Origin: Naegleria gruberi
Lineage: Eukaryota
Strand: one strand, 5' to 3'
DNA length: 64,000 nt
Assembly (NCBI GenBank): GCA_000004985.1
Contig: GG738869.1
Part shown: one piece after another, positions 809-33,600 of the stretch
Layout of the letters: every line of letters starts with the position of its first letter
Numbering within the stretch: position 1 is the stretch's first letter
The notes under the pieces: model-generated
The model's input: only the letters and a program-made list of their open reading frames with translations
The model's database searches: none
What the model was told of the DNA's origin: nothing
Program-made: the position numbers and the translations under genes

Positions 809-831
809 ATCAGCAAGGTATTTATTTACAA

Positions 832-5092: not shown

Positions 5093-5183
5093 TATGCTGC
5101 ACTTTTTTTGATGATTTTTTCTTGTTCGTACCAACTTCGTTTCAACAGTTTACAATGAAAAACCAATGTGTTTATTGAATGAA

Positions 5184-8304: not shown

Positions 8305-8478
8305 ATTATAATTTGCTTCATCATACATGTAATAAAAATTTAAGGATCTGTTTGTGATAATGAAATTCAATTCAATCGAGATCTTTAAAGATTCTCATAT
8401 TGAAAAACTTCAAGTTCATGACCTCTACCAAAATAAGAAAATTATTGTAAAATCAACAAGAAAACAAAATTAAAAAAA

Positions 8479-12654: not shown

Positions 12655-12662
12655 AACATTAA

Positions 12663-13307
12663 TCATTTCATATCAATTCTATTACGCTCTTTTAAATAGT
12701 GATTTTCTGACTTAATTTCTCCACATACTGCAAAACAAGTTGCAAGAATAGCTGTTGAAATTGATCCAATTTCTAACATTGCCAACAAAACTTCATTAGG
12801 CAATTGCTCAGTCATCAAAGTATGAGGAAGTGTTTGAACAAATTCCAGTAAGCTTCTGGAATGATGAATTTGGATTTTAGTCTCATCAAAGAGTAATACA
12901 CCAGCGATTGCAATATTAACCACAACATCCAAACCATTTAAAACACTTGCAATGAAAAAAAGCTTACTTGCTTTTTTGGATTTTTCTGATTTGGATCTTT
13001 GATAATCAGCAAGACAACCTTGTAATGCTAAAATACCGCCAATCAAAGGCACTGATAGAATAATTCCTCGAGCAAATCTACTTGGAATTATCATACCCAT
13101 TCTCCACAATATTCTCAATCCAATAATTTCATACATTGATTCTTTCATTCGATGAAGAGGTTGCTTCTTATTATTTTGTTGATCATTTGTAAAATTAATA
13201 TTGGAAACTGAGAATTTTCTTTCTTTCGGAATCGTCCAGATAGTTAGTGCTGGATTTTTCTTTGAGATTAACCTATTAATAGGTATTAGGCATTTGAGTT
13301 TAATCAT
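12663..13307 (-). CDS. Hypothetical multi-pass membrane protein
   Basis: A 214-aa ORF with a verified ATG. There are several hydrophobic helices with G-rich motifs (GIILSVPLIGGILALQG). The 5' end lies only about 47 nt from the stop of the next gene. Confidence 0.45.
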   Translation of the reverse strand: MIKLKCLIPINRLISKKNPALTIWTIPKERKFSVSNINFTNDQQNNKKQPLHRMKESMYEIIGLRILWRMGMIIPSRFARGIILSVPLIGGILALQGCLADYQRSKSEKSKKASKLFFIASVLNGLDVVVNIAIAGVLLFDETKIQIHHSRSLLEFVQTLPHTLMTEQLPNEVLLAMLEIGSISTAILATCFAVCGEIKSENHYLKERNRIDMK

Positions 13308-13354
13308 TTTTTTAATCCAATTAATACACGTTATTACAAATTTACAATTTAAGT

Positions 13355-15019
13355 TTATTTCTTAGCAGGAGCACCAGCAGCTTTTGAAAGAGGAATATCT
13401 TGAGCTGCAGATCTCAATTTTTCTACAGTAAAATCAGTTGTCATTAACTTCCCTGTGTACTTATCTTGAATACCACTCTCTAACAACTCATGCAATTTCT
13501 TTTTTCTTATTAATTCGACTTTCTTTCTCTCGAGTTCCATCTTTCTCTTGAGTAATTCGCCTTCCTCAAGATATTCTCTTCTTTGTTTGTCTTTTTCTTC
13601 TTTAGTGTTATCCATTTGTTGCATCAGCTGTTGTTGAGTCTGAACTCGTCTCTTTTTCTCCTCTTCAGCCTTAAGCTTTTCCAATTCTTCGAGCTTCTTT
13701 TGGTGATCCACAATCCTCGAAAAATCTTCTCTGTCCTCTCTTGCAAGTTCAGCAATCTTATTTTCCTTTTCCATCTTTTGCTTTTGTCTTGTGCCATGAA
13801 GTTCTTGATTCATTTTAACTCTCTTTTCCTCTTCTTGCATTTTCTTTTTTCTGAATTCTCTTTCCAGAGCTTCTTGTGCTCGTTTAGCTCTCAGAGTATC
13901 CATTTCAGAAAGCTTGTCTTGTGCCTTTTCTTGGAGAGCTCTTAGACGAGCAACTTCTCTTTCCTTTTCTGCTCTTAATCGTTCTTGTTGATCCGTTATT
14001 TCTTGTTCTCTTCTTTCCTTTTCTGCAAGGTAGTCAGCAATTTGTCTATCTTCTTCAAGCTCAGCAAGTTTTAATCTTCTCTTCAGAGATATTTGTTCTG
14101 CATTCGCAAGAGCAATTTCTTCCATAAGTAACTTTTCTTGCTTCTTCTTTTCCTCTGCCTCCTTAATATCTTCGGATTTCATCTTTTGCATGTGATACAA
14201 CATTGCATCTTGTTCTTGTCTCTTTAACTCGAGTTCTCTCAGTCTTTCCTTTTCTCTTTCCTTCATTTGTTCTTTAATTACAAGTGATCCATTTCTTCTG
14301 TCTTCTTGTCTCTTTTTTTCTCTTTGTTCATACATTTTAATGGCCTTTAACCTTTCAAGTTCCATCAATTCATCAAGTCGTCTATCTTCCTCTTGTTTCT
14401 CATAGATAATTCTTTGTTTTTCCTCCAATTGCTTGTCTCTAATTGTGACACATTGAGAATACAAGGCCATACTATTCATCCTCTTGACTTCATCAATATT
14501 TTCATCCATTTGAGTGATAGCTTTTTCAAGGAGTTGTAATTGTTTTTCTTCATTTTCTACGTCAAGATCAGATTTTTTCATGTCTCCCTTAGATTTCTTT
14601 TCTCTATCAAGCTGTCTTATACGTTCCTTTCTTTCCATAGCTTCCAATGTTTCTTCCCTTTTTTTTCTTTCAGCTTCCCTTTGTTTTTCAAGAGGAGTTG
14701 CTTTTTCTTTCAGGGTCATAAATTCGGAAGCTGAAATAACGACAGCATCTGGCTGCTTTTTGACAGTTTGTAATGTCCTTTTATCCATTTTCATTGAGTT
14801 ATTTTGTTGTTGTTTTTGTTGTGGTTGGCCCCTTGCTGATGACTTGTTCGTACCAAACAAGTTTTCATCCACAGTAGCCGTATCAGCAACTTTTCTATAG
14901 GTTGATCTTGCGTGAGATCCTGCACTAGATATCGAAGCATTAGATGATGGCTAATATAATAATATCAATTAAAATCAAATATCAGGTTAGAATACTTTGA
15001 GGGTAAGGCAACGTACCAT
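13355..15019 (-). CDS. CFAP45: Cilia- and flagella-associated protein 45 (CFAP45/CCDC19)-like coiled-coil protein, 2 exons: 15017..15019 (ATG only) and 13355..14950
   Basis: E/K/R-rich coiled coil with a CFAP45-like segment (EKEREVARLRALQEKAQD...LRAKRAQEA). The ORF-track start at 14872 is GTG and the frame continues upstream to a TAG. The sequence aaaaaaaATG|GTACGT...TATTAG (66-nt intron, 14951..15016, with a CTAAC branch) supplies an ATG-only first exon in frame. Confidence 0.7.
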
Positions 15020-15214
15020 TTTTTTTGTTGGTTAAAAAACGACAAACTTAACTACGAAAAATATTTGGCGGGAGAAATTGTTTGAATGCATCCACTGGCT
15101 TTTACAAGTATTGACAGCTGGAGCCAATCTTATCAAAGTTTATTATAAGAATAGATTATAACGAGAACATTAGAATAGGTGGATGAAATCAATAAAATTG
15201 CCTTATTAAATAAT

Positions 15215-16875
15215 TTATTGTTCCATTTCTTCATCCTCAGGATCTTCTGAAAGATTAGATGGTTTAAAGATTGAATAGCCGTCAAGACTTGTTGTAATAA
15301 GCACATTTTGGAATTTTGGATGCCAGTGCACTTCCTTAATGTCAACTTGACCCATGTGTTCGAATAACAATTGTGGTGGGATTTCATTTCCGATTTCTTT
15401 TTCAATTTCTTCTTGTTCGGCATCTCTTTCGAGTGAGAGATCCCAAATTGTCACCTTATCAGAATCAGAAGCAGCCAATAACGTTGATTCAATTGGATTC
15501 CATTCTATTGATGTAATAGAATTCTTGTGATAAATAAATTGGCCAACTGGTTTCATAGGACTGCTATCAGAACATTGTCTGACGTCCCAAATACGAATAA
15601 CACCATCATCGTCACCACTTGCAATAAAGTAACTTGTGAGAGGATTCCAAGAAATAACGTTAACATCTGCCTTTTCACTAGCTTCAAAACTGAGAGCATG
15701 CTTTCTATTCTTTTTTCTTGTATCCCAGAATTTAATAGTTCTATCGCATGAACATGATGCAAACACACTGTCTTCACTTGGTGAGAATTGAAGATCCTCA
15801 ACACTTCCTGTATGTCCAACAAATGGTTTATCATAAATTCTCTTCCAAGTATGAACTCCACTATTTGTTTGCATATCCATAACGTTAATTTCACCATTAC
15901 AATCACCAGTAGCAAGTCTACCTTCCACACACTTCGACCAGTCCATAGCAAAACCTTCAGTAGTATGGAAATCGAAAGTTTGAATTGCCTTCTTACTCTT
16001 TGTAATAGATTTTAAGGAACTGGCCATATTTTCTTGTCTTAAAACTTGTGACATTTGTGTCAAGTCATAAATGTGAACCTTAGAGTCCTCACACCAAAAA
16101 CCAACAATATTTCTATTTTGTGGCATTGCTCTTACTCTATTAACATTACCAGTGATTGGAATAGTTTGGTATTCAAGTGATGGTTCATCATCCAAATTTT
16201 CATTATCATCATCTTCATCTTCAACGTCACTTTCATCTGAATCGTAACGTGTTTTGTACATATCGTAAGCTTTAATCATGTAACAATTCTTTTGAGGAAC
16301 AGTTTCATCAGTTTGCACACCCACAACAAAATAACATGACAATGGATAATTCATAGTATCGAGTGGTTGTGAAACAATATCAAAACTCAAAGCAGGCCAT
16401 TCATTTCTGATTTTGTAATTAATTTCGTAGGCCTTATTTTGAAAAGTTAATTCGAATTCTCCATCATTGTAATTCTCTCCAGGACGATAAATATCGGCTT
16501 TGGAATTTATACCTTCTCTATACTTTTCGGCTTCTTCCTCCTCTTCAATATATTGTTTTTCACTGTTTTGTACTTTCAAATTTAATTCATCCATCTTTTG
16601 ACGAAGTTCGGTTTCATCTCCTTCAAATTCATATTCACCTTCATCTTCATCAACGTAGTCTTCCGAATTTTCATCGTATTCATCTTCATATGGATCGCCT
16701 CTACACAAAATTTAATCATCATCATCTATGAAACTAAAAAAACCTACGCTGCATATTCGGCTCTATCTTCATGGTCTGATTCTTCATCAGATGAGTCAAG
16801 ATGTCTGACCACTCTCGATTCATTCTTACTTCCAGAAAAAGTGGCTACTTTACTTCTCTTCTTTGCGCCTGGCAT
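15215..16875 (-). CDS. GRWD1: Glutamate-rich WD-repeat protein GRWD1/Rrb1, 2 exons: 16748..16875 and 15215..16700
   Basis: WD40 propeller with an acidic N-terminus, matching GRWD1. The ORF-track start at 16708 is TTG with an in-frame TAA upstream. An upstream exon (aaaaATGCCAGGCGCAAAG...GCAGC|GTAGGT) is joined by a 47-nt intron (16701..16747), phase 2, giving ...AEYAAGDPYEDEY.... Confidence 0.8.
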
Positions 16876-17004
16876 TTTTTATTGTCTTGTTGACTTCAAC
16901 AATTTTTTTCAAACTTTCATCAACAAGGCTTGTTGGAAAAGTGAAGTAAAATGTTGAACAAGAATAAAAATTTAAAAAAATTGAAAACACTTTAAATTCA
17001 AAAA

Positions 17005-18012
17005 ATGGTGACTACCAATAACAACAAGGAAACATCGGTCGCTTCAACAGAGAAGAAGCCAGTTGCTGTGACTACCAACAAGATTAGACAAAAGTTAAAG
17101 CAAATGAACAAACAAACAAAATCAACGGTTACAAATAGTGATAGTACCAATTCTAAATTCCACAACAAACAAAGAACTTTGATTTTATCTTCACGAGGTA
17201 TTCATGCTAAACATAGACATTTATTGAAGGATCTTCGTACCTTGTTACCTCACACTAAAACCGAAAGTAAATTCTCTAAAGAAGGAATAGATGAAGGAGA
17301 TTTGGTTAAAAAACTTCACAGACTTCAAAAGATTGACCACATTGCTGCTGCTTTGAAATGTCCAAATATTTTGTACTTTGAAGTTGATAAGGAATCAGCA
17401 GATACAGAATTGTTTTTATGGATGTCAAAGACTTCAACTGGACCTTCTATGAGATTTAAAGTTGAAAATATCAGTACTATGAATGAATTGAATCTTATCG
17501 GAAATTGTTTGAAATATTCAAGACCATTATTACATTTCGACAAAACATTTGACAATATTGAAGGCGAAGATAAGCTTACTCATCTCCCATTGATTAAGGA
17601 ATTATTAACACAAACTTTCTCTACACCACTTAATCATCCAAAATCAAAACCATTCTTTGATCACATGTTTGCTTTCTATTATTTGGATGGAAGAGTTTGG
17701 TTCAGAAATTATCAAATTGTTACAAAACAATCAAGCCAAGGAGTTGCATTGACTGGTTCCCAAAAACATGAATATTCTCTTGTTGAAATTGGACCTAGAT
17801 TTGTTCTCAAGTTGACTAAGATTCTCAATGGTTCTTTCGATGGTAGAGTTATTTTCAATAGTGATTCACACTTTGTTTCAAAGGCTGAAGTTCAAAGATT
17901 GGAAAGCATTAAACTTGACCTCGACAAGCAAAAAAAGACTGAAAAACACAGAAAGTACTTAGAATTGAGAAAGCCAGCTGATGCTGATGAAGTGAGTTCT
18001 GTTTTCAATTAA
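17005..18012 (+). CDS. Brix-domain ribosome biogenesis protein (Brx1/Ssf1/Ppan-like)
   Basis: 335-aa ORF with a verified ATG. Brix-domain motifs are present (LILSSRGIHAKHRHLLKDL..., FEVDKE...). There is a possible GTGAGT donor near the 3' end, so the C-terminus is uncertain. Confidence 0.75.
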   Translation: MVTTNNNKETSVASTEKKPVAVTTNKIRQKLKQMNKQTKSTVTNSDSTNSKFHNKQRTLILSSRGIHAKHRHLLKDLRTLLPHTKTESKFSKEGIDEGDLVKKLHRLQKIDHIAAALKCPNILYFEVDKESADTELFLWMSKTSTGPSMRFKVENISTMNELNLIGNCLKYSRPLLHFDKTFDNIEGEDKLTHLPLIKELLTQTFSTPLNHPKSKPFFDHMFAFYYLDGRVWFRNYQIVTKQSSQGVALTGSQKHEYSLVEIGPRFVLKLTKILNGSFDGRVIFNSDSHFVSKAEVQRLESIKLDLDKQKKTEKHRKYLELRKPADADEVSSVFN

Positions 18013-19629
18013 AAGTTTTTTCAAAAAACTGCTGTACTGATTTTTTTCAATATTCCCTAAAGCTCCTCACCTAAAGCAATAATAAGGACTTTGTGAGCGG
18101 ATTTTGAATGATATTGGAGCAAAATTTGTCGTGCCCAACTCAATTTTCCATCACTACAAGATATTAATCACCGCGTTTCATTTTGCTTTTTGTAATAAAA
18201 GTTGTAAAGTTATGACGTTGGATAGCTTTATAGAAAAAAATACCATCACCAACTGACAAACCAAAAATTATTACCTCCCAACAATAATTAGTAACATCAC
18301 ATCCTACCTCGTCTCTTAGGTTGAGTTCTTTTATAAGAAAGTTCTTTTCATGTAGAGGTGTTTTATAATTATTCCAAAATTGAAGTAATTGTTTTACTAC
18401 GAGGTAAACTCACAACAAATTCTCAAGGAGATGATGTTGTGTTTTGGGATGTAATGTTTCTTATTATGTCAGAAAACATCTAGTAAGGAATGATTTATTT
18501 AGAAGAAGAACAACAACAATATTTAGAAGATATAAAACCATCACTGTGGGCTGATGATTTTCAGCAATAATTTAGAGAGACCAAACAAAAAATGATTTAA
18601 TATTGCAACATACAAACACACCACTTCAGCACCAACAGCAAGTAATCGTCTATGGAAAACTTCATCAAAGAGGGTCTCCTTTTTTTCATCACTAAATTCT
18701 ATTGATGAAGCATCATGACTATATCCGAGGATTGTGAAACAACAACCAACAGCAGGCTTTTACGATGATTCCGCACATTTGAATGAAGTATTAGTTTAGA
18801 TCAACTGGTACTGAAAAGGAGAAAAAGTATGCTGCTTGTTTGGCTCCTACCTCATCACTTGCTGTTGCTTTTTGTTATTTACTCCTGAATGCGTTGCTAT
18901 CTTATATATGATTGTGATGTGTTTAATTAATAAGTTGGAGTGGGAGCAGCAACAGGGTAATAAATGTAAGTACCTACGATTTATTTGAAATTTTACCTTA
19001 ATTCCATTTCATAATTGACACCATGGAACATTTAAGGTGAAATCTTCACCAAAATAATAATTTGAAATAGTCAGTTTTGGAAAATGATGTCAGAGAATTT
19101 GATATTTATGAGTGTAATCTTTTCACATTTCAATTTGGTTGGTGCTATACATTCCATCATCAAGACTTAAGGTCCTGCCATTAATTAGAAACTGTGATGC
19201 AAGAAATAGTAACTGTTGTTGATGGAACTGTTTTAGAAGATTTAGCAAGTATTAATGTTGTCTACACAACAGCAACTGTTGCCATCTAAATCCTTACAAC
19301 TCTGAAGGTGAATTCATTTTGAAATATGATCCTCCAAGGGAAACTATGTTCATTCTCACTGATTAAAAGCTGATTTTACCGTTTGATTTGAGTGTAGACA
19401 TTTACAATAGATGATTCTCTTACACATACAGAGGTGAAAGAGATGCACTGATGATGTTCTTTCAACTCTTCAGTTTTGACTCAAGTCAAATTGTCTATTC
19501 AGTGGAAGGTATGGATGAGTTATCTATATAGTAGACACTTATAACTTTAGAATTAGAAAGCTATCAATTACCAATAAGACTATCATATTTATTACTTATC
19601 GGTGGACAAGAAGAAGGAAAACTTTGGAA

Positions 19630-20084
19630 ATGAATATTACTGATACTCTTGCTCAACCAACAGGACTTGCTTTTTTCAGAATTCTGAACATGCTTCAATT
19701 AACACCATTCCATATACATTGCCTACAAGTTTTACATCAAGATTGTCAATGATCTTACAATAATTGCAAGATCTAGTGCTCCACCAACTCCAGGTCTGAG
19801 TTAGCAGCTCCTGTTCCTACTCTCAATACAACTATTGCCCCAACAAGTATTGCAGTTGGTGAGGATGGAAAAGTAACACACCCTCAAAATGTTAACACCT
19901 GCTCCAACCTGAACAATTTTTGTCGTGGCTAATACTGGATAATATCGGTCCTATTGAGGATGATGGCTTGGCTATTAGTTCTTCATTTATTACTGTTTCC
20001 TCTGAGGAGATTATTCTTGCTGATTGTATGAACAATAGAATTAGAAAGATTTGTGGAGAGGGAGTCATTACTACCAGTGGCTAA
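19630..20084 (+). pseudogene. Decayed NHL-repeat gene fragment, paralogous to the receptor kinase at 30615
   Basis: Translation of 19941..20084 gives NIGPIEDDGLAISSSFITVSSEEIILADCMNNRIRKICGEGVITTSG*. This matches the NHL unit of the 31097-exon (IYFADSGNNRIRKIVNGTINTVAG). Upstream frames are broken by stops and no intact ORF remains. Confidence 0.35.
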
Positions 20085-21329
20085 TGCCTATGACTAAGAG
20101 AGATGTTTGAAAGTAATTGACCTAACCTTTCATTTTGCGTATTGTATGGAATGAAATGTCTCTAGTCAAAGAAGTGTTTTTGAGAATTGTGAATAGTGCT
20201 TCAGTGATCGTTTGGGCTCTTGTTGATGGTAAGGAAATGAGTAGAGATATCAAAAAGATTGCATATGATTTTGCCTTCTTTACTATTGATGTTTCACAAG
20301 TTTGCCAAGGAATTGTAGTCATTCAAGTTATGTTAATATTCGTAAAAAAATTGAGAAAATGACTCTTTGCCACCTTGCTGATTTTCGAAGTGGTTTCTCA
20401 GCACCAAACTTTCACATCATCATCTAAACATCAATTTAGTAGTAATATAGTAATTTTTATTGGAGTATTTTCTTCATTATTTTGGAATTTATCTTCATGA
20501 TGAAAAATCACAAGTTGATGAATCATCAGAACATTATTGTTGTTTTCCATCAATATAATAATTTTATTTGTGGAAATTAATATATAGTAATGAAATTACA
20601 CTAAAATCTTCATCACCGTTGGATTTAATGGAAAAGTTGGAAAACTATTAATGTGGCATTGTTGGAAATGGACAATAGTATGATATAAAACTTTGTTTGA
20701 TCACTTTTCATCAAGTATTGATAGAGATAGGTACATGTGAATTTTGAAAACTAACATGAACATTACTCCATGTGTACTTCAACCAACTTGAATACAATCT
20801 TATAGAACTACTAGTACTATTTAAATCACGAATAAACACCATATTCATCATCAAATATTCGTCATCTTGTCGATTACGGAATTTCATTCCACCAGTGTTG
20901 ATTCGGGCCCAACAACAAAATATTAACAATAAAACAATTACCAATACTATTGTTTACATGTTTTATGTTAAATGATCGTAACGATCATCAAGATCATCCT
21001 GTTTTTATTGCATTTCTCATGATAATCAGAAATGTCACAGAGAGTGCCACATATCCATTCTACTCTCAATAAATAATAGTTCCTTTTTACACATGTGCAA
21101 CTTTGCTTATAAACATGATGAATTCATATATTAAAGACTCCAAAGGCTAGTATAATCCTCAATGTGATGTCTAATAATACCATTACAACTTAAAGATAAT
21201 TATCTTATAATTTCATTGAATATGAATTGAATTTGTAAATTGACATAAAACAGTGGTTTATTGTAATTTGGTTTAAAAATAGCTTTCTAAAGCACCTTGT
21301 TGTATCTTGTTGTGACATTTACTAAAAAA

Positions 21330-22385
21330 ATGGCAAAAGCACCAGCACAAATTGTTATGGAGAACAAATTGCGGAAATCATTAACATTAAAACAATTCAT
21401 AGAATTATCCAAGTCTACAAGAAAAAGGAGATTAGATAATCTTCGTAAGAAATTCTTTAATTCAAATTTATTTAAATATTCTTGGAGTAAATGGCGAGAT
21501 GCTATTATCGGAACAAACAATTCAATCCAATATTTATTAAAACAAAGAAAAAACATAAAAAATAATTTATCAACATCTACAATTGATACAATAATTCAAC
21601 AATTAAAAGAGGAAAGGAACAAATCTACAAAAAAAGAATCCAAAAAAGATTTTGAAAAAAAAATTAATAATTTATTACAATCTAAAAATTTATTCAAAAT
21701 CAATGTTAATTTGATATTATGTAGTAATTTGGCTAATACTATTCAACTAATGTTTTTAAGAAATATACTTCCCGAAAATACCACTACTGAGGTAACCAAT
21801 ATATTGGATAAAATTAACCAAAGAAGATCAAAGGAAAATTATTATATAGGAAGTTGGGGAAAGAGTTCTTCTTTTCTATTTAAAACTAATGACACTATTT
21901 TTAATGAATTATCTTCTCAATTTATTAAAATTATTAATTTATTAAAAAATTATGTTTTGGAAATATTGAAATTTGGAAATAACAAGATGAGGAAATTCTT
22001 AGAAAAATACAATAGTAGTGATTTTTTATCAATTTATCCGACAGTGTGTTTTAATTTTTTGGATAAATCTGTAGATGAAAATAGAATTCTACATATTCAT
22101 CCGGATAAGGAAGACACTGGAACTAGTCTAATTTTTTACTTTGGAAAGTTTAAAGGTGGAGCAATCTCATTTCCTGAATTAAATTTTAAGCTTATGGTTC
22201 AATCAGCAGATGTTTTATTGTTTGATGGTAAGAATAATTTACATGCTGTTGAATCACTTCATGGTAAAGATGATGTTAGATATTCCGTTGTATTCTTTGC
22301 TCATAAAGCAGACTTGGGTAAAACTAGTTATCCCATGAATAGAGGAGAAGTTATGAAAGGTATTAAGAATAAAATCAATAATTAA
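21330..22385 (+). CDS. Tet/JBP-family 2OG-Fe(II) dioxygenase, Naegleria NgTet1-like 5-methylcytosine dioxygenase
   Basis: The ORF-track start at 21297 is TTG; the first ATG follows an A-run at 21330. The C-terminal half carries the catalytic signature HIHPDKED (HxD) ... LIFYFGKF ... VLLFDGKNNLHAVE (distal His) ... VRYSVVFFAHK (Arg). As I recall it, this aligns well with NgTet1 (HKD...SLFYFGNF...VLFFKGNEYKHVV...WRIGLVYFAHK). The gene is K/N/I-rich and Leu is mostly TTA. Confidence 0.7.
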   Translation: MAKAPAQIVMENKLRKSLTLKQFIELSKSTRKRRLDNLRKKFFNSNLFKYSWSKWRDAIIGTNNSIQYLLKQRKNIKNNLSTSTIDTIIQQLKEERNKSTKKESKKDFEKKINNLLQSKNLFKINVNLILCSNLANTIQLMFLRNILPENTTTEVTNILDKINQRRSKENYYIGSWGKSSSFLFKTNDTIFNELSSQFIKIINLLKNYVLEILKFGNNKMRKFLEKYNSSDFLSIYPTVCFNFLDKSVDENRILHIHPDKEDTGTSLIFYFGKFKGGAISFPELNFKLMVQSADVLLFDGKNNLHAVESLHGKDDVRYSVVFFAHKADLGKTSYPMNRGEVMKGIKNKINN

Positions 22386-24134
22386 ATTTTAAATAATTAT
22401 TTAAATAATTTTTATAAATAATTTAATTGTATTAAAAAAATGTCTCCACACTTTAACCTCGAATTTTATTCGAGAAGCACAACAGTAATAGATGAAAGCA
22501 CTCTCGGTGGGCTTGATTTGATAATAACACACTTATACATCCTCTTGTAGGAGTATAATTAGTGTTGTTGTTGTGAGTTGAGGACGTTATTTTAATTCCT
22601 TTTCCCTTCTTCCAAAGTTTCCTGTTCAAACTTTGTTGCTTCCGTAAATCATATTATCAACAGGAAAGATCATTTAACTGCGAGCATCGTTGTTGGATAC
22701 AAACTATGCATTGACAATTCTTTTAATTATCTTGAATGTTTGGTAATTGATGGCAATGTTCATATAATCAACTCTCACCAAAGAAGAATTCTAAAATATA
22801 TCTAATGATCAGGCTGTTGATTTTCAACAACATACAGGTATTCGGAGCTATTGTAAAATAATTGTTTTACTTTGATGATTCAAATGGTTTTCAACAACTA
22901 ACATAATTCTTATCCATCTTGCAAAAAAAGAGGATACCATGACAGCAATCAACTTATATCAATATTGAAAAATCATTAGGAAATTATTCAGAAGTAGCAT
23001 GCATTGTAATTGTTGCGTTCAAAACATTTCTCAACATTAAATTCTTTCTCCACAATCAAACCCTGCTCAGCAACAATCAGAAGAGGAGCCATCTTTTAAT
23101 CTAACTTGCCATCTATGTTGAAGGAATGTACATTTAGAAATCAGTGATGTTCACCCTGAATGTGATGGATCTTTTTCTGGCTACTTGTATTGGTTGCTCC
23201 AGTAATTGCACATATGGAGGCTCTTTTAATGTTTCCAATAACCAAACTATGCTGGTGATTCCACTCCCAACCAAAACCCTATCAAAAAGAATTCTTCTAT
23301 ACAACTAGTATGAGTCATAGAGCTGTTGTCTTTCGTCCACTTTTAATAATAATATATGGTATGCTTTTGTTCAGGCTGTAATGTTTCGAGTGCAATTCAA
23401 CACCAGTGTTTTCATTCCAACCATGATTGGATCATATCTCCAAAGAGGACACTGGGTATTATTACTATTTAAAGTTGGCTACTAATAGTGAAATCTACTT
23501 GTTCGATCCAATGTTGGATGCCAAGTTCACTAGTGCTGAGCTGGCTATTGATATTTCAGATATCCTTTTTGTTTGTTGTCACTACCACCCTATTATTCAA
23601 CTTCTAGGTTTACGTTTCAAGAATCATGGGTTTATTTGGTTTAAGATGTTATGTTTCAGTATTCACGTAAATATGATGCAAGGAGGACACTTATTGCTGC
23701 TGTGGTGGTAATAGTAGCATTACCTTAGGTGTTGTAGTGTATACTACTTCATCATCTATTAATACTTATTCTCCAATTACTCAAACAAAGACAATTTCAA
23801 TCAACATTCACTATGTCAGTGCTTAATTATTCCAAGTTGTACTAAAACAACATCACTAACAAGGTGCTAAACAACTATGCTTTCCATTTCAACGCAGAGG
23901 CATATGTCTTGCGTTTGGGGCAGAGATTTAGTGCTTGAATAGTGGTTAAACAACAATGGATGGGCATTTTGGCAACTGGTTTTCAGTAGCTTCACATTCA
24001 TGTTGTTTGACTTAACAAACACTTTGGCTGCAATCTATTCACTCTTTATCCATCATTTATTCATCATTTACACCAATACTGTATTGTTTACATTTTGTAT
24101 GCTAGCTGGTTATTATTATTAATCATTAAAAAAA

Positions 24135-26864
24135 ATGGGAGTAGCGACACTTTTTACCAAAGCTGACGTTTTAAATTCCCACAACATCAAAAAGCAAAAA
24201 GAAACCAAACGTCCTGCCTTTGAAGGTGATAATGATAGATCGATTGTGGCGGCAATTAAAAAAACAAAACAACAAGCATCCAACGACTTTGAGTATTACA
24301 AGACATACAAAGAAACAGATTTCACTAATGAACAGAATTTTAGTTCAATAATTTATCAGATAATGCTAGTTCTATTGCCCTATTTTGTTTTTAAAATAAC
24401 CTCAGGATTATTAGATTTTGAATCAATATTATTATACTTTCTAGTCTCCACAAAAAAAGGCAAAGATTTATTAGCACAAGCCAATCTATATAGTACTGAG
24501 GGTGTTTCTTGGTGTGAAGCAATAGTATTTAAAGCAATTTGTAATGCAGATATAAGTATAGGGAGTTATGGTAGATTTATTGGTTGTTTAGAAGAATCTA
24601 GTAAATCAGACACATCCAGAAATAAGAAAAAGGCAAGACATTTTTTACCATCACTCTCTACAATAACAAAATATTCAAGTAGTTTACATCAAGTATTAGA
24701 TATCAATCATGCTGCAGATAGCGAAGGACTTTATTGGAGAATATTTTGTTCATCCATAGAACTTAATGACAGGACATTCAGATATGCAACGCTTCAAAAT
24801 GCAGAATTGTTTTTATTCTCATTTATTCGCTACCATGAAATGATCATAGGAGAATATATCTTCTTTGTAAAGATAAGATGTACTGTTGATGGTTCACCTT
24901 TAGAGGGAGCCTGTACTGCGTATGATATTGTATTAATTCATCCCAAGATAGATCCATTTTGTGCTCGTAATTATATTTCTGTTATTATTGCCGAGCCTAA
25001 AGAGGAAATAGCGTTCAAATTAAACATCTGGGATTTCTCTCGCCAGTTAATGCGTATCACACAGTTGAAATACTCTGTACCTAATGAAGAAACAAGAATT
25101 ATTCCTGTAAAATTTATTACCAACCCTGATAAGGGCGCCTTTAACAAAATTATAGATGTGGAAAAGGTAACGCCAATTTGTGATCCTATTTTTAATTTGG
25201 TAAATCTTTATTGCCTATTATCAATGATTTTCAATACAGATAATTCCTTAATACTACCTCTAATTCCAACAATAAGAGGAGATTGTAATAATGATAGCAA
25301 CAAAGCAAAAGGACAAGCAAATCTAGCAAAGGTTATGGAAATTAAAAAGATTATGCCTGAAACGTTACCTTATTACCACAACATTCCAACAAAATCCCAA
25401 ATATTTACTGATTTTCAATTAGATGAAGATTCTATTTTTTTAATTGAAAAATTTATCATTAAGAAACCTCAAACAGATTATTTATGTTGTATGTTTTGTT
25501 ATTTAACTAAACAAACAAAAAGAATAGCATTGAAGTATCCTGATTTGTGTACATGGAAATGGTACAGATCAAACGAAAGCTCAAGTAATGCTTTAGGCTG
25601 GCCTTTTAAAAGTTTTTCATGGTGTCTTTCGCATGATATAAGAGCCTGTGGTCAGAATCTTATTGAAGAAGAGGTGGGACAAATTGAAGAAGATAGACAA
25701 TATTTTGCCAAATTATTCAGTTCTGAATCTCCAATTGCCTCTTTGAAATGTGGTTCTAAAAAGCTAATTAATGAACAACTAGATGCCAACCTTGTTTCTG
25801 AATTTGAGTTTTGTCAATGGAGTGTATTTGAATTAAAGGTGAAAGAAGAAAAAAAGAAAAACAAAACAGGAACAGAGCTACGAACTAGTTCAGTTAAACT
25901 AATCTATGATCAGATTTTGTTTAAACAAATAGACAAAATTATAATGACAATAGATGTTTGGTATCCTCATTGGCTCACATATCGAGAAAACAAACAATTA
26001 CAGGTTTGTCAATCCCTTAACAATAATCAATCATTTGAAGATTGTACAAATGAAGAACACTCCAAGCGAGGAACATACAAACCAAAAAACTATGAACATA
26101 TATGGAAAGCTCTTCAAAAAACATACATTACTCTTCGCCAACCAAAATCTAAATGGTTAGAATGGAAGAAAACTGGATATCAAGAGCCATTGCTAATATT
26201 TAAGAATTTAAATAAGGTTTGGATAAAAGATATTTTAGGAAGAATATCAGAATATTTACACATTCATCAACATGCAGATATTGTGTTCGATGAAGTAGAA
26301 GAATCATTCGTAACAACATCAAACATTGGATCTGAATCTAAAAATTCTTTAAGAAGGAAGCGTCATGTTTCATTTGGAGTTAATGGTGGTTTAAGACATC
26401 CTTGTGATGATTCTTTATATTATGACAGCAAAAGAATTCTTAATGAATTGAAGATCCTTGCTGAGACTCCTAATATTATTGCAAGACAAGATGAGATCAA
26501 AAGAAAACAAGTTTCCGAAAAAGAAAAACTCACACAACCAAAAAAGAAAAGAAAATCTGAAACTACTACACAACCCAATCCAATAAGCTCAACCAATTCC
26601 TCAATTAATTATATCAATCCTTCCCTATTACAACCTCTACTTCCAGATAATTTTAATTCAATTACATTACACAATCAACACTCCTTCTCACCTCCTATAT
26701 ATATTCATCCTCTTCAACTCCAACCTCCACTAACTAACAATTTAACATTTTCTCAATTCAATCCTTCTCAAAATTCCAATAACCAACCAACATCTCCTTA
26801 CCAACCATCATCTCCATTTTCATTCTTTTCATCCTCCAATCCATCACCAAACTCCTTTTTATAA
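24135..26864 (+). CDS. Large hypothetical protein (909 aa) next to the Tet-like gene, with a Ser/Asn/Pro/Gln-rich C-terminal tail
   Basis: Uninterrupted ORF with a verified ATG after an A-run. I see no recognisable domain, but there are Cys-rich patches (DYLCCMFCYL, CTWKWY). Codon usage is AT-skewed (Leu=TTA, Ile=ATA), like the Tet gene and unlike the housekeeping genes in the window. Confidence 0.5.
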   Translation: MGVATLFTKADVLNSHNIKKQKETKRPAFEGDNDRSIVAAIKKTKQQASNDFEYYKTYKETDFTNEQNFSSIIYQIMLVLLPYFVFKITSGLLDFESILLYFLVSTKKGKDLLAQANLYSTEGVSWCEAIVFKAICNADISIGSYGRFIGCLEESSKSDTSRNKKKARHFLPSLSTITKYSSSLHQVLDINHAADSEGLYWRIFCSSIELNDRTFRYATLQNAELFLFSFIRYHEMIIGEYIFFVKIRCTVDGSPLEGACTAYDIVLIHPKIDPFCARNYISVIIAEPKEEIAFKLNIWDFSRQLMRITQLKYSVPNEETRIIPVKFITNPDKGAFNKIIDVEKVTPICDPIFNLVNLYCLLSMIFNTDNSLILPLIPTIRGDCNNDSNKAKGQANLAKVMEIKKIMPETLPYYHNIPTKSQIFTDFQLDEDSIFLIEKFIIKKPQTDYLCCMFCYLTKQTKRIALKYPDLCTWKWYRSNESSSNALGWPFKSFSWCLSHDIRACGQNLIEEEVGQIEEDRQYFAKLFSSESPIASLKCGSKKLINEQLDANLVSEFEFCQWSVFELKVKEEKKKNKTGTELRTSSVKLIYDQILFKQIDKIIMTIDVWYPHWLTYRENKQLQVCQSLNNNQSFEDCTNEEHSKRGTYKPKNYEHIWKALQKTYITLRQPKSKWLEWKKTGYQEPLLIFKNLNKVWIKDILGRISEYLHIHQHADIVFDEVEESFVTTSNIGSESKNSLRRKRHVSFGVNGGLRHPCDDSLYYDSKRILNELKILAETPNIIARQDEIKRKQVSEKEKLTQPKKKRKSETTTQPNPISSTNSSINYINPSLLQPLLPDNFNSITLHNQHSFSPPIYIHPLQLQPPLTNNLTFSQFNPSQNSNNQPTSPYQPSSPFSFFSSSNPSPNSFL

Positions 26865-26897
26865 AATAAAAGGAATAATTTAAATTATAATAATTGT

Positions 26898-27659
26898 TTA
26901 ATATTTATTCCATTTAACAGATTCATCAAGCATAGAGCAGAAATAATCAAATTCAATTCTAATCATCTTCTCTTCAGGTTTGTAAATTAATTTAAATTGA
27001 TTAATTCCAAATTTCCATAAAATACCATCATGCTCCCATTTAAATGCATACCACTTATCACTAAACAAAGGAGGAAGGCTATAATTTCCAGCAAACAACC
27101 AATGATATGTTATCTTTGGAACTATTCTTCCTTCCCTTGCAATGCCACCCTCAATCAACATCTCTTCTTTTAAAATGCTATATGGTTTTGCCTTTTGTAT
27201 TTGATAATCAAAGAATAGCTTTGCTTCGTGATCATCTGTTACAGAAACATAATGTTGATGATGCCACTTGACATTATGGGTTGTATCTGGCTGAGCATTT
27301 CTAATAACTACCTCCTCAATAGTTCTCGGAAGTACCTTTAGGTATCTTGTTGCATAATATTCATCAGAATATTTTTCATCCATTATCTCACGCAGTGTTA
27401 TTGTTGGTAGGGAAGTATCAAAAAAGTATTCAAGTTGTTGTCTTTTCTCTAATGGTATGTTCACTTTCTTACTCTCTTCACTGCCTTCAAGAATGTTTGT
27501 TACTTGGCGTTTAGCTGTTTTCAAATCATCAACCTTCTCTACAACAAAACGTATTTTGTTTGTATTGTTATTCTTCTCCAACGATTTATTCATAGCTACC
27601 CTCTTACTTTTGCTCAACCTGTATACTTCAAACGTTACTTCTGTTTTGTTGGTGACCAT
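26898..27659 (-). CDS. Hypothetical protein (253 aa)
   Basis: Single ORF with a verified ATG. I recognise no family. The W/Y/F-rich C-terminal half looks like a beta-sandwich. Confidence 0.4.
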   Translation of the reverse strand: MVTNKTEVTFEVYRLSKSKRVAMNKSLEKNNNTNKIRFVVEKVDDLKTAKRQVTNILEGSEESKKVNIPLEKRQQLEYFFDTSLPTITLREIMDEKYSDEYYATRYLKVLPRTIEEVVIRNAQPDTTHNVKWHHQHYVSVTDDHEAKLFFDYQIQKAKPYSILKEEMLIEGGIAREGRIVPKITYHWLFAGNYSLPPLFSDKWYAFKWEHDGILWKFGINQFKLIYKPEEKMIRIEFDYFCSMLDESVKWNKY

Positions 27660-28045
27660 AGAAAATACTTGTTTGTTTTGTTTTGATTTTGTTGTTGCTC
27701 ATGTTGTTGTTGATATGTGGTGTTGTTGATGTTATTGTATTTTTTTTTACGTGAGTTTACAAATTGAAAAACAAGCAAGAATGAAACGCGGTGAAATTAC
27801 GATCAGGATTTGAAAAAATATCAAAAAAGACGTTACATAACAAACAAACCTCGTAACCGATCATCAACACTTGTACAACTTGACTCTTAACAAGTATTGT
27901 TGTTGTGGGAAGATTTTAATCTTCGTAACAAACTTCATCATCATCCGACTTTTTTAAAAACTCTCTTATCATCATCAACAAGAAGTGATTTTGTACTAGT
28001 ATTGTATTTTGGTAGTTTAATTATAATACAAGAAGATTAACCATC

Positions 28046-30412
28046 ATGGGAGGAGAAACTGAACCATCTAACGAAGCTCTAATATCACCAATTACACCTT
28101 TTTCAACCATTATTCCAAATACCTATTCTCAACAACAAGCTAATTTTGATTCAAGTACAATATCCGAAGAGAGGAATGATGGTGATAGTATCAATAGAGT
28201 TACCTCTCTTCCACCATTACCATCATTAGACTCTCCCAAGAAAAAACCTCTTCCATCCATTAACACTCTTTCTCCACCAAGAAAGACTTCAAAACCACTC
28301 CCACCAAGACCAACACAAACCTCTACGGAAATTAATAATTTAGTATTTTCTCATCCCTCTGCTATGAATACAACTTATTCTTCCGATAATTTTACCACCA
28401 ACAATCCATCCTATCCATCCACACCTCCAAAAGTTTTGTTCCGAGATTATACTGAGAATAATTTAGAGCCAGCTTCCAGTATTAATACATATAATTACGA
28501 GTTTGCAAATATAAACCCTGAACCAATATCACATATATTTACAAATGTAGATGGTAGTATGCACCGTAGTTCCTCCTTTGCGGGTACTTTGGTCAACAGA
28601 CGTTCAATTCCTTCGAATGTTGGTTTAAACTCTATACAGGAGGAAGCTATGATTCGTACTCAAAGTTATGACAAATTTAAATTGGACGAATTAAAGAAAC
28701 AAGGATCGACTGCTGCTGGCAATAATAACGGAAATAATAATAATAAGAGACATAAGAAAATATTTTATAATACTGAATTTTTGGAGAAATGCGGATTTAG
28801 TAATAATTCTATTGAACAGCAACAAATCAAACAACTGAAACAGGATGAACTTCAAGAGGAACAGATTCGTAGAATGCATTCTGAACAAGAACAAAAAATG
28901 AAGCAAATGGAATTAGAAGAGTTGGCTCTCGTCAACCGAACTTTACAACAAGAGTTCAGTTTTTCAGAATTTTTAACTTCTCAACCAAAATACTCATGGA
29001 GTGACTTTTTTGCCCATAACAAGAATGCATTTAGTTTAATCAGAGCTATGGCATCTCAATGGTCATGGGGAGAAATGACCTTGGGACTCGAATATTTTGC
29101 AAGAAGTAAGGGCAAGATGAAACGTGATTTTACTCAATTCAAATTAGAGTCAGATTTAGAGAGACTGCCAGCTTCAAACGTTGAGGTTTGGAGACATTAT
29201 GCACGTTTAACCTATCAAGTTTTTAGAGACTCGATAGAGGACATACCAAGGAACACCCGTTTGGAACTTCACAAAATTATTGCCTACGATAGAACTCAAC
29301 AAGCCATGAGACCTGGATATTTTCTGTGTGTGGACGACTATACAAAATCGGTTCTGGTTATTTTTAGAGGAACAAAATCATTTAGTGATATTCTGACTGA
29401 TTTGCACTGCTCCTCTATTCGTTACAAACATGGATATTGTCACAAAGGAATTTTGACAGCTGCTCAATATTTTGATTCGAACAAATTCATCAAGGAAGTG
29501 GTTAAAAGAACTCTTGAGCATCATCCAGGATACAAATTAAGGTTGCTGGGTCATAGCTTGGGTGGTGGTACTGCAGCTATATTGTCCACTATGTGGAAGA
29601 AAGACTTTCCTGATATTCACTGTTATGCATTTGCATGTCCACCAGTTTTATCACAAATTTTAGCTGACGAATGTGCTGACTATGTTACAAGTTTTGTAAA
29701 TGGTGATGATTTTGTAACAAGATTATCAATGACAGCTGTTCACGAATTGAGAAAGGAAGTACAGAACTATCCTTGGAAGGAGGAAATGATGAAAGATATT
29801 CAAAACTCAACACTTGGAAAGTTTGCAGCTGGAGTTAAAAATTATGCATCTGGTTTATTTAGTGGATTATTTGGAGGTAGTAAGAAGGCAGATGTAGTAG
29901 AGCCAATCATAGAAGTTAAAAAGGATGTAATCAAGACAGAACCTATCACCACAAACATTACAACAATAAGTACAGGAGAAGATGCCAAAAGAATTGAGTA
30001 CGATCAATCTAATTCATCGATGGAGGATCAAGATATTTCCAGTTCAAGTAATGCTGATGATGTGCAGAGTACAGATGAGCCTCTTTCCTCAATCTCACAA
30101 AGCACTAATGATGATGTTTTCCCTTCTTCAGGCTCAACTGTTAAAAGAAAAGTTTCCAAAAAACCAAAGAGGAACCCAGATTCTCCACTGATTATTAATG
30201 ATTATGAAAATCTTGTTGTGACTCTCTTCCCAGCTGGTTGTGTCTATCAAATTAGAAATATTGATGACACTGTGTACATAAAAAAGGCCAATAAGGAAGA
30301 CATTACTTCCATAATTTTGAGTGACAGCTACAAGGAAGATCACAGAATGATCAACTATTTATGTAATCTTGATGCTTACAATCCAATAACAACCGAGAGT
30401 AGTGTAATATAA
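28046..30412 (+). CDS. Class-3 (fungal-type) lipase domain protein, DAG-lipase-like, with a Ser/Pro-rich N-terminus
   Basis: 788-aa ORF with a verified ATG. It has the lipase_3 nucleophile elbow GHSLGGGTAAILS and the upstream YFLCVDDYTKSVLVIFRGT motif. The N-terminal 300 aa are low-complexity. Confidence 0.7.
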   Translation: MGGETEPSNEALISPITPFSTIIPNTYSQQQANFDSSTISEERNDGDSINRVTSLPPLPSLDSPKKKPLPSINTLSPPRKTSKPLPPRPTQTSTEINNLVFSHPSAMNTTYSSDNFTTNNPSYPSTPPKVLFRDYTENNLEPASSINTYNYEFANINPEPISHIFTNVDGSMHRSSSFAGTLVNRRSIPSNVGLNSIQEEAMIRTQSYDKFKLDELKKQGSTAAGNNNGNNNNKRHKKIFYNTEFLEKCGFSNNSIEQQQIKQLKQDELQEEQIRRMHSEQEQKMKQMELEELALVNRTLQQEFSFSEFLTSQPKYSWSDFFAHNKNAFSLIRAMASQWSWGEMTLGLEYFARSKGKMKRDFTQFKLESDLERLPASNVEVWRHYARLTYQVFRDSIEDIPRNTRLELHKIIAYDRTQQAMRPGYFLCVDDYTKSVLVIFRGTKSFSDILTDLHCSSIRYKHGYCHKGILTAAQYFDSNKFIKEVVKRTLEHHPGYKLRLLGHSLGGGTAAILSTMWKKDFPDIHCYAFACPPVLSQILADECADYVTSFVNGDDFVTRLSMTAVHELRKEVQNYPWKEEMMKDIQNSTLGKFAAGVKNYASGLFSGLFGGSKKADVVEPIIEVKKDVIKTEPITTNITTISTGEDAKRIEYDQSNSSMEDQDISSSSNADDVQSTDEPLSSISQSTNDDVFPSSGSTVKRKVSKKPKRNPDSPLIINDYENLVVTLFPAGCVYQIRNIDDTVYIKKANKEDITSIILSDSYKEDHRMINYLCNLDAYNPITTESSVI

Positions 30413-30614
30413 TGTAAATAAAATCTCGATTTTTGACCATTAAGGAATTTAATCATTTCACAACAAACAATTAGAAAGCACAATTTTCTTTTTTTGTATT
30501 GGAAAGGGAGCAAGCAATTAATTGAACTCAATTCGGAAATATTGAGCTATAATTTTAGAATGGATGTTGTATTGGTTGTGGTTGTATGGTTGCTAAAATA
30601 ATCAATCCTACAAA

Positions 30615-33600
30615 ATGTCACAACATCAAACAACACTACAACTACTCATTTCCCTGTTTTTATTTTTGATTGTTGTTCAATGCACAGCATCAACAATGGA
30701 ATACAATACTAGTCTATCATTTGGTATTGATACACTGGTTGGCTATGATCCGAATAATGGAAATAATCTTCCTTCAATATATGCCAATTTGAATCCCAAT
30801 AATTTGACATTTGGCACGAATACAAAGATAATGTTCATGTATGATGGTGTTAGGAATGCCATCATGAAACTTGATCTGAAAACAAATCTGATTTCGAAAT
30901 TAATTGATTTAGAATATAGAGCGCTCTCAATATTAGAAACTAGAAATGGAATTTTATTTACAGATGCTCAAGGAAGGAATATTAAAATGTTGGCCAATGA
31001 TTCAATTTCTATTGTGGCAGGAACATTAACAACAGGATATTCAGGTTTGTTGATCTTGGGATGATTTTATTTTAAACTAATATTTGATATTAAAAGGGGA
31101 TGGAATTGCAAACGAAACGAAACTAAACTCTCCAAAGGGATTAATTGAGGATGGTAATGGAAATATTTATTTCATCGATTACTATAATTATAGATTGAGG
31201 AAATTATCAGGTAATATGATTTCAACAATAGCTGGTGATGGAAAGAATGAAAATAATGGAGATGGAGGATCAGCTCTAAAGGCCAACTTGAAAAATCCTT
31301 CCAATCTGGCACTAATTGACCACAACTTATACATTTTATGTGATACAGCAATAAGGAGAATTGATTTAATCACAAGTAAGATTTACAGTTTCTCAGTTGA
31401 AAGTCCATTCAAATTTACTGGAATTTTCCAAGCCAATGGAACAATTTTTGTTCACTCTGCTACTGCAATTGGTAAAATTCAATCCAATCAGAAGATTTCT
31501 ATCATTTCCGGATCAGCATCTGTATCGGGTCCTTCTGTAAATAATATTCCAGCAATTGATGCCTTATTCAAACAAATAAGTTCAATTGGGGTACTTTCGT
31601 CTGAGTTAGGGGATGTTATTTATGTTTATGATTCTTCAAATAATGATATTAGGGTTATTAATGAGACTCGTTTTATTAATCTGTTGGCTGGTGTTAAATC
31701 TTTGAAAGCAAATGTGGATTTATCGGCTCCTTATTTTATTTCTAATGATCCAATTGGACTTGCTGAGCTGATTAATGGTGATTTAGCCTTTTCGCATTCA
31801 GGTGGAATTGCCAAATATTCCAATGGATTGATAACAAACATAGTCGAATCTTCTAGCCCAATATTAGGAATTGCTTTCTATGAGAAAGAGGATGAGCTCT
31901 ATTATGTGGATTCGAACTCAAAAATTAAAAAGCTCAAAGATGGAGAAACGATACACGTAGCAGGAGCATCGAATGGACAAAATGCAGACAACATTCCAGC
32001 ATCAAAAGCATTACTTTCCTCTCCGTATGGAATTTCAATAGATCAAAGCAATGGAGACATTTATTTCACTGAACAATCAGGAAATAGAATACGAAAGATT
32101 TCTCAAGGAATTTTAACAACAGTTTGTGGAAATGGTCAAGCAGGAGATTCTGGAGATAAAGGGGAGTCCATTAAGGCACTAGTGAATAATCCAAGTGGAA
32201 TTCAGTTTACACAAAATGGAGAGATTTATTTCGCTGATTCAGGTAATAATCGTATTCGAAAGATTGTGAACGGTACCATTAACACAGTTGCTGGGGCAAA
32301 TGTTTGTAATGCTAAGGAAGGATCAAAAATGGCCACTGAAACGGTGTTGAGAAATCCAACTTTCGTTTATGTCTATCCGAATGGTGATTTTCTCATAACA
32401 GAAACAAACTCTCATTTGGTGAGAAGAGTTTCAAAAGGATTTATTTACACTATTGCAGGTACTGGACTATCTGGAGAGGGACCTGATTCAGTTCTGGCTC
32501 TTCAATCAGCTTTAACAAGTCCCAAGTCAATCATTCATTCATTTTCAATGAAACGAGTTGTACTAGTTGATAAGACCAATAGAGTGAGAATCTTAACTCC
32601 TTATTGTGAAGAGGGATATGTATTAGATGTTTATGGAGCATTCTGCATTCCTTTCTGTTTTGGAATTCTTGCAAATGATACAAATACTTGCTCTGGAAAG
32701 GGAGAATGTTCTTCATTCAACAGATGTAATTGTGCAGCATCCTATGGAGGAGAACAGTGTAATATTTCTAAATGTTTTGGAGTATTGGCAACTGACTCAA
32801 AGACATGCAGTGGAAGAGGAAAATGTTTGGATGGAATTTGTGATTGTGGAGGTAAATTCATTGGAACTAATTGTGAAATTCCCATTTGCTATGGAAAAGC
32901 TTCAAACGAGAGTGAAGTTTGTGGCGCTCATGGAAAATGTTCTAATTGGAATACGTGCGAATGTTTGGATAAGTATTCAGGCAGTTCGTGTCAATATCCT
33001 ATTTGTTTCGGCATTGCTTCAACCAGCCCTACTGTTTGCAGTGGAAGAGGAGTATGTACAGGACCAGATTCTTGTAATTGTCAATCTGGATCTTCTGGTA
33101 CTATTTGTGAAGTATCGAGAGAAGAAATTGACAAACAGAATCGAGAGAGAATAATCATAATAATTAGCTCAGTTTCAGGCTCCTTATTCTTATTATTCTG
33201 CTGTATTATTTGGACAATATCGGTATTCATATTCACCAATAGAAAGCTCAACCAACGACACAATGCAGAGCTAGATATGGAAAAGAAACTTCTTGAATTT
33301 GAGTTCAATGATTCACAATCTTCAGTCAGGGAATCAGTCTACCTCTTTTCACAACACCAGAAACCATACTTGATACCAATAGAAGATATTACATTTGTTA
33401 AAAAGATTGGAATTGGAGGATTTTCAAATGTTTATTTGGGAAAGTGGAACCAGTCGTTTGTGGCTGTCAAATCTGTTGAAAATCAAGACGATAGAGCTGA
33501 TGATGTATTTGAAAAAGAAGCACAAACTTTGTGTGCCCTCAAACATCCAAATATTATCACTTTTTATGGAATTTCATTTTCAGAGAGCAGAAAATTGCTG

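Follow-up and report, generated by a model that had tools for sequence, protein, structure and literature searches.

A gene-poor island around a Tet/JBP gene of Naegleria gruberi is a mobile element bounded by terminal inverted repeats

Why does a Tet/JBP dioxygenase gene of the heterolobosean amoeba Naegleria gruberi NEG-M lie in a gene-poor island, and is that island mobile? We addressed this question in a stretch of 64,000 nucleotides of contig GG738869.1 (assembly GCA_000004985.1), hereafter the window, in which the initial annotation had outlined, at 18013-27000, a compositionally distinct and possibly mobile island holding the Tet-like gene, a 909-aa open reading frame (ORF) and decayed gene fragments. 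The island is real and is one mobile element, which sits between a Brix gene and a lipase gene and has its exact limits at 18169-27793 (9,625 bp). The outline had therefore captured the island but not its exact bounds, since a 253-aa ORF and the right end had been left out.

The comparison contigs come from one public sample (ENA ERZ929261 / ERR1078381), in which an N. gruberi-like genome with about 99% identity to the window is present. In a contig of 5,747 nt (L009), the WD40, Brix and lipase genes are contiguous, with a Brix-lipase distance of 400 bp. Positions 6-3034 of this contig correspond to 15150-18168 of the window (99.0% identity) and positions 3035-5747 to 27794-30502 (98.6%); position 18168 is thus joined to 27794 to the base, and the 9,625 bp between them are absent at the same locus in the N. 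gruberi-like genome. Two further contigs (L007 and L008) follow the window with 99.2-99.3% identity as far as 27793 and then run into two mutually different flanks, both unlike that of the window, so that the right terminus abuts three different flanks in all. Moreover, another contig (L001) carries a diverged copy (85-96% identity) that lacks 24031-25941, 26021-26148 and 26486-26620 and therefore represents an internally deleted derivative.

The boundaries of the element and of its insertion site are the following.

18161..18168, no strand: left flank of the insertion site, ...ATATTAAT
18169..18196, plus strand: left terminal inverted repeat, 5'-CACCGCGTTTCATT, perfect over 14 nt and imperfect to about 28-30 nt
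27763..27793, minus strand: right terminal inverted repeat, reverse complement beginning with CACCGCGTTTCATTCTTGCTTG
27794..27801, no strand: right flank of the insertion site, AAATTACG...

The perfect 14-mer CACCGCGTTTCATT occurs in inverted orientation at both ends of the element, at 18169 (+) and at 27780-27793 (-), and has no other exact match in the 64 kb; when as many as 2 mismatches are allowed, 0.17 matches would be expected. The arms of the terminal inverted repeats (TIRs) agree in about 27 of the 31 aligned columns, with three indels of 1 nt, and the element written end to end reads 5'-CACCGCGTTTCATT...AATGAAACGCGGTG-3', with the tips CACCGCG...CGCGGTG. A generic scan for inverted repeats over 16-29 kb returned AT-rich chance pairs alone and overlooked the true TIR because the 1-nt indels split the repeat. 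The empty site reads ...CAAGATATTAAT followed directly by AAATTACGATCAGG..., i.e., the left flank and the right flank joined without extra bases, and, since neither the first nor the last base of the element is the same as the flank base next to it, the junction is unambiguous. The TIRs coincide with this junction, as the termini of a class II (TIR) DNA transposon do, and the presence or absence of the unit at one locus is accompanied by its occurrence at several sites. Together, the empty site, the TIRs, the other flanks and the deleted copy are the typical signs of a TIR DNA transposon with past movement in this species, which bears out the mobile island suggested by the initial annotation.

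It could be argued that nothing has moved here, and that the other strain has simply lost normal host DNA that is poor in genes and whose genes are weakly expressed. Indeed, the window holds one full copy, its self-BLAST gave no repeats of the element region anywhere in the 64 kb, and low expression alone could produce the codon skew described below. Such a deletion, however, would need end points that match a 14-nt inverted repeat to the base, and inverted repeats do not mediate deletions; furthermore, the same end lies on two other flanks in the sample, a diverged deleted copy exists, and a homologous TIR-bounded unit is duplicated in Willaertia magna. This explanation is already contradicted by these observations, and we regard it as extremely improbable.

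With regard to the other copies, an exact-sequence look-up of the small ORFs of the left part in the protein collection gave no match, and therefore no left-end contigs were retrieved. A scan of a JGI metagenome for the terminus gave three unrelated chance matches, on contigs with a GC content of 36-50%. The right subterminal region contains a 28-nt tandem repeat (2.3 copies, 27678-27738), and both L007 and L008 show a 6-nt insertion in this region, at window position 27701.

We put at roughly 80% the probability that 18169-27793 is a single TIR DNA transposon of the cut-and-paste type, carrying a candidate transposase, a partner ORF and an intact Tet gene, as listed here.

21330..22385, plus strand: Tet/JBP 2-oxoglutarate (2OG)-Fe(II) dioxygenase, 351 aa (NAEGRDRAFT_79850, XP_002676954)
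24135..26864, plus strand: candidate transposase, 909 aa (NAEGRDRAFT_67858, XP_002676955, D2VG55, 'predicted protein')
26898..27659, minus strand: accessory ORF (ORF253), 253 aa, starting 134 nt inside the right end

The Tet-like gene noticed in the initial annotation lies within the TIR-bounded unit and is missing from the empty site. Its ORF aligns over 222 residues with the structures of NgTet1 (4lt5 and 5cg8; phmmer E value of 3e-21), and the catalytic residues are intact, with the H258-P-D260 motif (258-260), H305 and R317 supplying the HxD...H triad and the 2OG-binding Arg of the double-stranded beta-helix core. The assignment to the Tet family is solid; the Pfam Tet_JBP model gives 23.6 bits, under its gathering cut-off of 34.9. 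The ORF is 100% identical to NAEGRDRAFT_79850, on a scaffold of 747,259 bp, and to P0008. The NCBI model of NAEGRDRAFT_79850 has 211 aa, and the intact ORF is open for 351 codons.

As for the 909-aa protein, which is encoded by an intact ORF, its relatives were collected by searching 1.84 billion representatives exhaustively with HMMER. Word-indexed searches with the protein and with the family alignment gave nothing, and the cluster to which the protein belongs at 90% identity has as its representative an unrelated 54-aa bacterial 'phage integrase' fragment (P0010), which hid it from two database searches. Seven relatives were found: N. lovaniensis C9374_012882, N. fowleri FDP41_009065, three W. 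magna genes and two contigs of a single JGI metagenome. As far as sampled, the family appears to be confined to vahlkampfiid amoebae.

The family alignments display an ordered series of motifs, namely, VDG(S/R)P (D252), (N/S)PD (D331), C-x2-C (C452 and C455), YP-L--W-W-R, C-x2-H (C497 and H500), H-x3-4-H (H709 and H713) and SE (E734). The two Asp, C(2)C, C(2)H, H(3-4)H and Glu are kept in nearly all of the members that cover them, with the loss of H(3-4)H in one protein (P0005). In particular, C452-x2-C455 and H709-x3-H713 are located between D331 and E734, and are conserved in 4/4 and 5/6 of the covering members, respectively. The occurrence of C(2)C and H(3-4)H between the second Asp and the Glu defines the CMCT clade of transposases, which comprises EnSpm/CACTA, Mirage, Chapaev, Transib, Plavaka, ESTA, Lanisha and RAG1, and whose elements mostly have 5'-CA..TG-3' termini and target-site duplications (TSDs) of 2-5 bp (Kojima 2025, PMC12730594). 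Both the C(2)C/H(3-4)H motifs and the CA..TG termini are present here, the latter in N. gruberi as well as in W. magna. The protein would thus be a DDE-type transposase of the CMCT kind (CACTA/Mirage/Chapaev/Transib/RAG1).

Structure prediction points in the same direction. Two AlphaFold2 models of low confidence (pLDDT, the predicted local distance difference test, of 41.7 and 44.9) both present a beta-beta-beta-alpha-beta-alpha arrangement around D252 and D331. When structures were ranked against an independent full-length model, also of low confidence, RAG1L came 4th, Transib 6th and RAG1 28th, among helical-bundle noise; Foldseek with the first model returned noise alone. Models and motifs are therefore concordant with, but not conclusive for, a RAG1/Transib-like DDE transposase. 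The suggestion that the 909-aa protein is a companion transposase accordingly survives as that of a candidate, on account of the CMCT motifs and the CA..TG ends, but the families proposed for it, i.e., KDZ, MULE, hAT and PIF, received no support, as no Pfam match was obtained at E values up to 10. For KDZ (Kyakuja-Dileera-Zisupton) in particular, no member of the family gave a Pfam match to a transposase or CxC domain, and no TSD was found; Zisupton and Dileera elements have an 8-bp TSD.

ORF253 is unannotated in NEG-M, where the lipase NAEGRDRAFT_58119 is the next annotated gene after the 909-aa ORF, and an identical protein has been called in two other assemblies. In L007 and L008, the protein is 100% identical to that of the window, with 2 synonymous and 0 non-synonymous changes. 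Profile searches against Pfam and the PDB gave nothing significant for it. In N. gruberi, ORF253 and the candidate transposase gene are convergent, with 33 nt between their stop codons. Homologues of ORF253 adjoin the transposase homologue in N. lovaniensis (L002, 10001-10729) and in W. magna (L013, 9165-9959), and in W. magna the ORF starts 161 nt inside one terminus, compared with 134 nt in N. gruberi. Since the two genes lie in tandem on one strand in both W. magna and N. lovaniensis, an internal inversion must have occurred in one lineage.

The W. magna locus offers a second case of the same arrangement. Two contigs, L013 and L014, share a segment of 5.2-5.4 kb with 98.6-99.2% identity, which on both starts sharply at CACGGGGTGGTCTTCGC after different left flanks. 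An inverted copy of its first ten bases (CCACCCCGTG) occurs in L013 at 17028-17037 and nowhere else in that contig, which delimits a unit of 8,034 bp (L013 9004-17037) with a perfect 11-nt TIR, CACGGGGTGGT, and with the ends CACGGGGTGG...CCACCCCGTG. This unit contains the ORF253 homologue, a transposase homologue with all of the motifs, two other ORFs and a Tet-like gene of 357 aa (L013 15884-16957), in which the HxD, His and Arg residues are intact and which stops 80 nt short of the right terminus; the L014 copy breaks off before its Tet gene would be reached. Against the window Tet, that of W. magna reaches 57.7 bits, compared with 25.2 bits against NgTet1. Because of this second case, the combination of transposase, ORF253 and Tet inside CAC...GTG ends is not peculiar to one locus. 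In the flanks of the L013 unit, no duplication longer than TT (TT/TT) was found. The two W. magna copies also differ by a 157-nt indel in the region of an unassigned ORF of the element (L014 12409-12565 versus L013 13625). Just beyond the element, L013 18543-21763 contains two genes for SprT-like proteases, of which one also has Chromo and HMG-box domains, and may be another mobile or chromatin-related unit.

In N. lovaniensis (L002, PYSW02000061.1), the 242-aa ORF253 homologue is followed, after 50 nt, by a 994-aa ORF (10781-13765) whose product joins two Zn2Cys6 clusters to the transposase-like region. The NCBI model C9374_012882 (1,159 aa) fuses these two ORFs. A search for TIRs around this homologue gave a weak 9-nt candidate alone (CACAAAACT, at L002 9823 and 13982), and no Tet gene was found within 10 kb of it. 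The N. fowleri-type homologue has an in-frame stop at L003 1063-1065, which is spliced out as an intron in the NCBI model FDP41_009065.

The genes of the element account for less than its full length, and its remaining parts include the features below.

18197..21329, no strand: ORF-poor left part of the element, with no detectable coding signal
21204..21250, plus strand: terminus-like internal sequence, TTTCATT..AATTTGTAAA..ACATAAAA, about 80 nt upstream of Tet
22386..24134, no strand: ORF-poor spacer, of which 23862-24030 is kept (87%) in the deleted copy L001

As originally noticed, two stretches of the island, of 3.3 and 1.7 kb, lack credible ORFs: at a threshold of 100 aa, 18013-21329 (3,317 bp) is the largest ORF-free stretch of the window and 22386-24134 (1,749 bp) the third largest. 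The second largest, 6411-8478 (2,068 bp), lies outside the element. The coding-like texture attributed to these stretches could not be recovered, as stops occur in each of the six frames at the rate that random sequence of this composition would give, the codon log-likelihood trained on the window genes is negative throughout, with no positive frame, and the longest open stretches (80 and 94 codons) equal the median of shuffled sequences. The left part contains two short D-x-x-N-x-RIRK motifs on the plus strand (19522-19584 and 20007-20081) resembling NHL repeats; their best score against the neighboring NHL/EGF/kinase gene (31216-33927) is 26.2 bits, with shuffles reaching 23.9, and Pfam found nothing in the six-frame translations of the 18013-21329 gap. 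What had been described as a clear NHL-repeat remnant is thus marginal, and the presence of decayed gene fragments could not be demonstrated. Scans for Rfam families and tRNAs over 17-29 kb were negative, no Zn2Cys6 motif was found inside the element, and the comparison of the left ORF-poor part with the relatives revealed no conserved segment and no counterpart in W. magna. Both stretches look non-coding, and would be non-coding or thoroughly decayed cargo of the element rather than host intergenic DNA. The neighboring receptor-like gene with NHL, EGF and kinase domains extends over 31216-34371 and is apparently split by a short intron or a frame break (33927/33952).

The composition of the island is indeed distinct, with a GC content of 0.313 versus 0.336 for the rest, the lowest of all 9.6-kb windows. 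The unusual codon usage reported at the outset (TTA over TTG for Leu, and ATA for Ile) was also recovered. The Tet ORF has the lowest GC content at third codon positions (0.19) and the highest TTA/Leu fraction (0.56) of the window, the 909-aa ORF has the lowest TTG/Leu fraction (0.12), and ATA/Ile amounts to 0.35-0.39 in the 909-aa and 253-aa ORFs. The extreme codon use of all three genes, together with the GC content, is in keeping with a foreign origin or with poor expression.

In view of the terminus-like sequence at 21204-21250, it may be asked whether the unit is composite, i.e., whether an older element of 6.6 kb (about 21204-27793, with Tet, transposase and ORF253) came to lie beside 3 kb from another copy or of captured DNA, which provides the outer left end, and then moved together with it as a whole. 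The 10-mer AATTTGTAAA occurs exactly at 21230 (+) and 27756 (-) and nowhere else in the window, the sequence has the orientation of a left end and lies about 80 nt from Tet, just as the W. magna Tet is 80 nt from a terminus, and the left 3.1 kb have neither genes nor a W. magna counterpart. It is possible that 21204-21250 is a degenerate older left end. Nevertheless, the similarity covers about 30/50 positions and lacks the CACCGCG tip, a subterminal binding site is conceivable in its place, and no copy with the inner boundary was found. We consider a composite origin less likely than not.

Several findings weigh against a single cut-and-paste transposon mobilized by its own 909-aa protein. 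Since the two flanks, joined end to end, give exactly the empty site, the insertion in the window has no TSD (0 bp, filled flanks versus L009), whereas 2-5 bp would be typical of CMCT elements; the TSD that the initial annotation had envisaged beside the TIRs is thus missing. As had been noted at first, no domain of the 909-aa protein can be named, and neither it nor any member of its family matches Pfam at E values up to 10, nor does a profile of the family retrieve anything significant among PDB chains. The differences between copies in the transposase fragment, 6 non-synonymous and 4 synonymous, give no clear sign of purifying selection. A single full copy was available, that of the window, the others being known from right ends alone. 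Furthermore, neither convincing TIRs nor a linked Tet accompany the homologues of N. lovaniensis and N. fowleri, and the N. fowleri protein (P0016) ends before the E motif; together with its in-frame stop, this marks it as a probably decayed copy. The empty site might alternatively be what an excision left behind, with an imperfect duplication of 3 bp (AAT/AAA), but this reading is less simple.

These data may also be read in the sense of a mobile segment in which the 909-aa protein is domesticated or unrelated cargo, movement being due to an enzyme acting in trans or to a mechanism without a staggered cut, either of which would explain the missing TSD. The lack of Pfam and PDB sequence matches and the low confidence of the models agree with this, as does the N. 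lovaniensis homologue, which is fused to two Zn2Cys6 DNA-binding clusters, lacks clear TIRs and has a domesticated-like appearance. This explanation seems to us rather improbable.

Returning to the transposon with its own transposase, it is possible to hypothesize how it would work. The 909-aa protein would bind the CAC termini and catalyze excision and integration with D252, D331 and E734, C(2)C and H(3)H would form a RAG1-like zinc site, and integration would leave no TSD. The Tet enzyme, by analogy with the fungal elements, may oxidize 5-methylcytosine on and around the element, and in this way allow it to escape from methylation-based silencing. An anti-silencing role has been proposed for the TET of fungal TET+ transposons (PMC12730594). 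More tentatively, and at somewhat less than even odds, the element would represent an undescribed RAG1/Transib-like lineage in or beside CMCT, restricted to Heterolobosea, recently active in N. gruberi and W. magna and TSD-less, in which the association with Tet and the partner gene predates the Naegleria/Willaertia split and at least one NgTet paralogue serves as cargo directed against 5-methylcytosine.

If this is true, the capture of demethylases by DNA transposons would be a recurrent counter-defense across eukaryotes, beyond fungi, here with a transposase that looks unrelated to theirs, and the RAG1/Transib-like transposase fold would extend to a deep-branching protist lineage. The Naegleria Tet family is a structural model for Tet enzymology, and part of it would be recast as mobile-element cargo. 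A CAC-ended, DDE-type element without TSD also raises the question of its integration chemistry. At this locus or beside it, three gene models of N. gruberi are either wrong or missing.

Compared with NgTet1 (4lt5 and 5cg8), the Tet of the element is a paralogue from the same genome and retains the HxD, His and Arg residues, but it is transposon-borne, has a Lys/Asn-rich N-terminal region of 110 aa and an extremely AT-rich codon usage, and shares its C-terminal tail with the Tet of the W. magna element.

With respect to Transib and RAG1-RAG2 (ProtoRAG and BbRAGL), the best structural matches, obtained from low-confidence models, are 6b40, 4wwx and 6pqn, and the ends of the N. gruberi element likewise begin with CAC. 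The Cys/His motifs of the 909-aa protein are arranged like the zinc site of RAG1, with a spacing of about 21 residues between the last His and the Glu; in RAG1 the corresponding spacing is 20 residues. The convergent orientation of transposase and partner gene in N. gruberi recalls ProtoRAG, in which RAG1L and RAG2L are convergent. Different from these systems, the N. gruberi element lacks a 5-bp TSD, the insert that separates the second Asp from C(2)C in the 909-aa protein is much longer, with about 120 aa, and the 253-aa partner ORF has no shown relation to RAG2. Spy elements of the PHIS superfamily are also DDE-type TIR transposons reported to insert without TSD, and 0-bp TSDs are known among Harbinger relatives (Kojima 2025, PMC12730594); their transposase motifs and termini are different, and there is no evidence of a relationship.

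In our literature search, TET+ transposons were reported from fungi alone, and no paper linked Naegleria with a TET+ element or with Transib-like transposons; an earlier mention in the papers of Iyer/Aravind is possible in both cases. The fungal elements (TET+ EnSpm, ESTA and Plavaka; PMC12730594) resemble the present one in being TIR-bounded, in having a TET/JBP gene beside the transposase, in their CAC...GTG termini and in the extra accessory ORF. They differ in that the host here is a heterolobosean amoeba, the Tet is of the NgTet type, the transposase shows no detectable similarity to the Pfam models of EnSpm, Plavaka and RAG1, and no TSD accompanies the insertion, compared with 2-5 bp. 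The strategy, and probably the transposase clade, are thus the same as in fungi, whereas the host lineage is new, the transposase is too diverged for current family models and no TSD is present.

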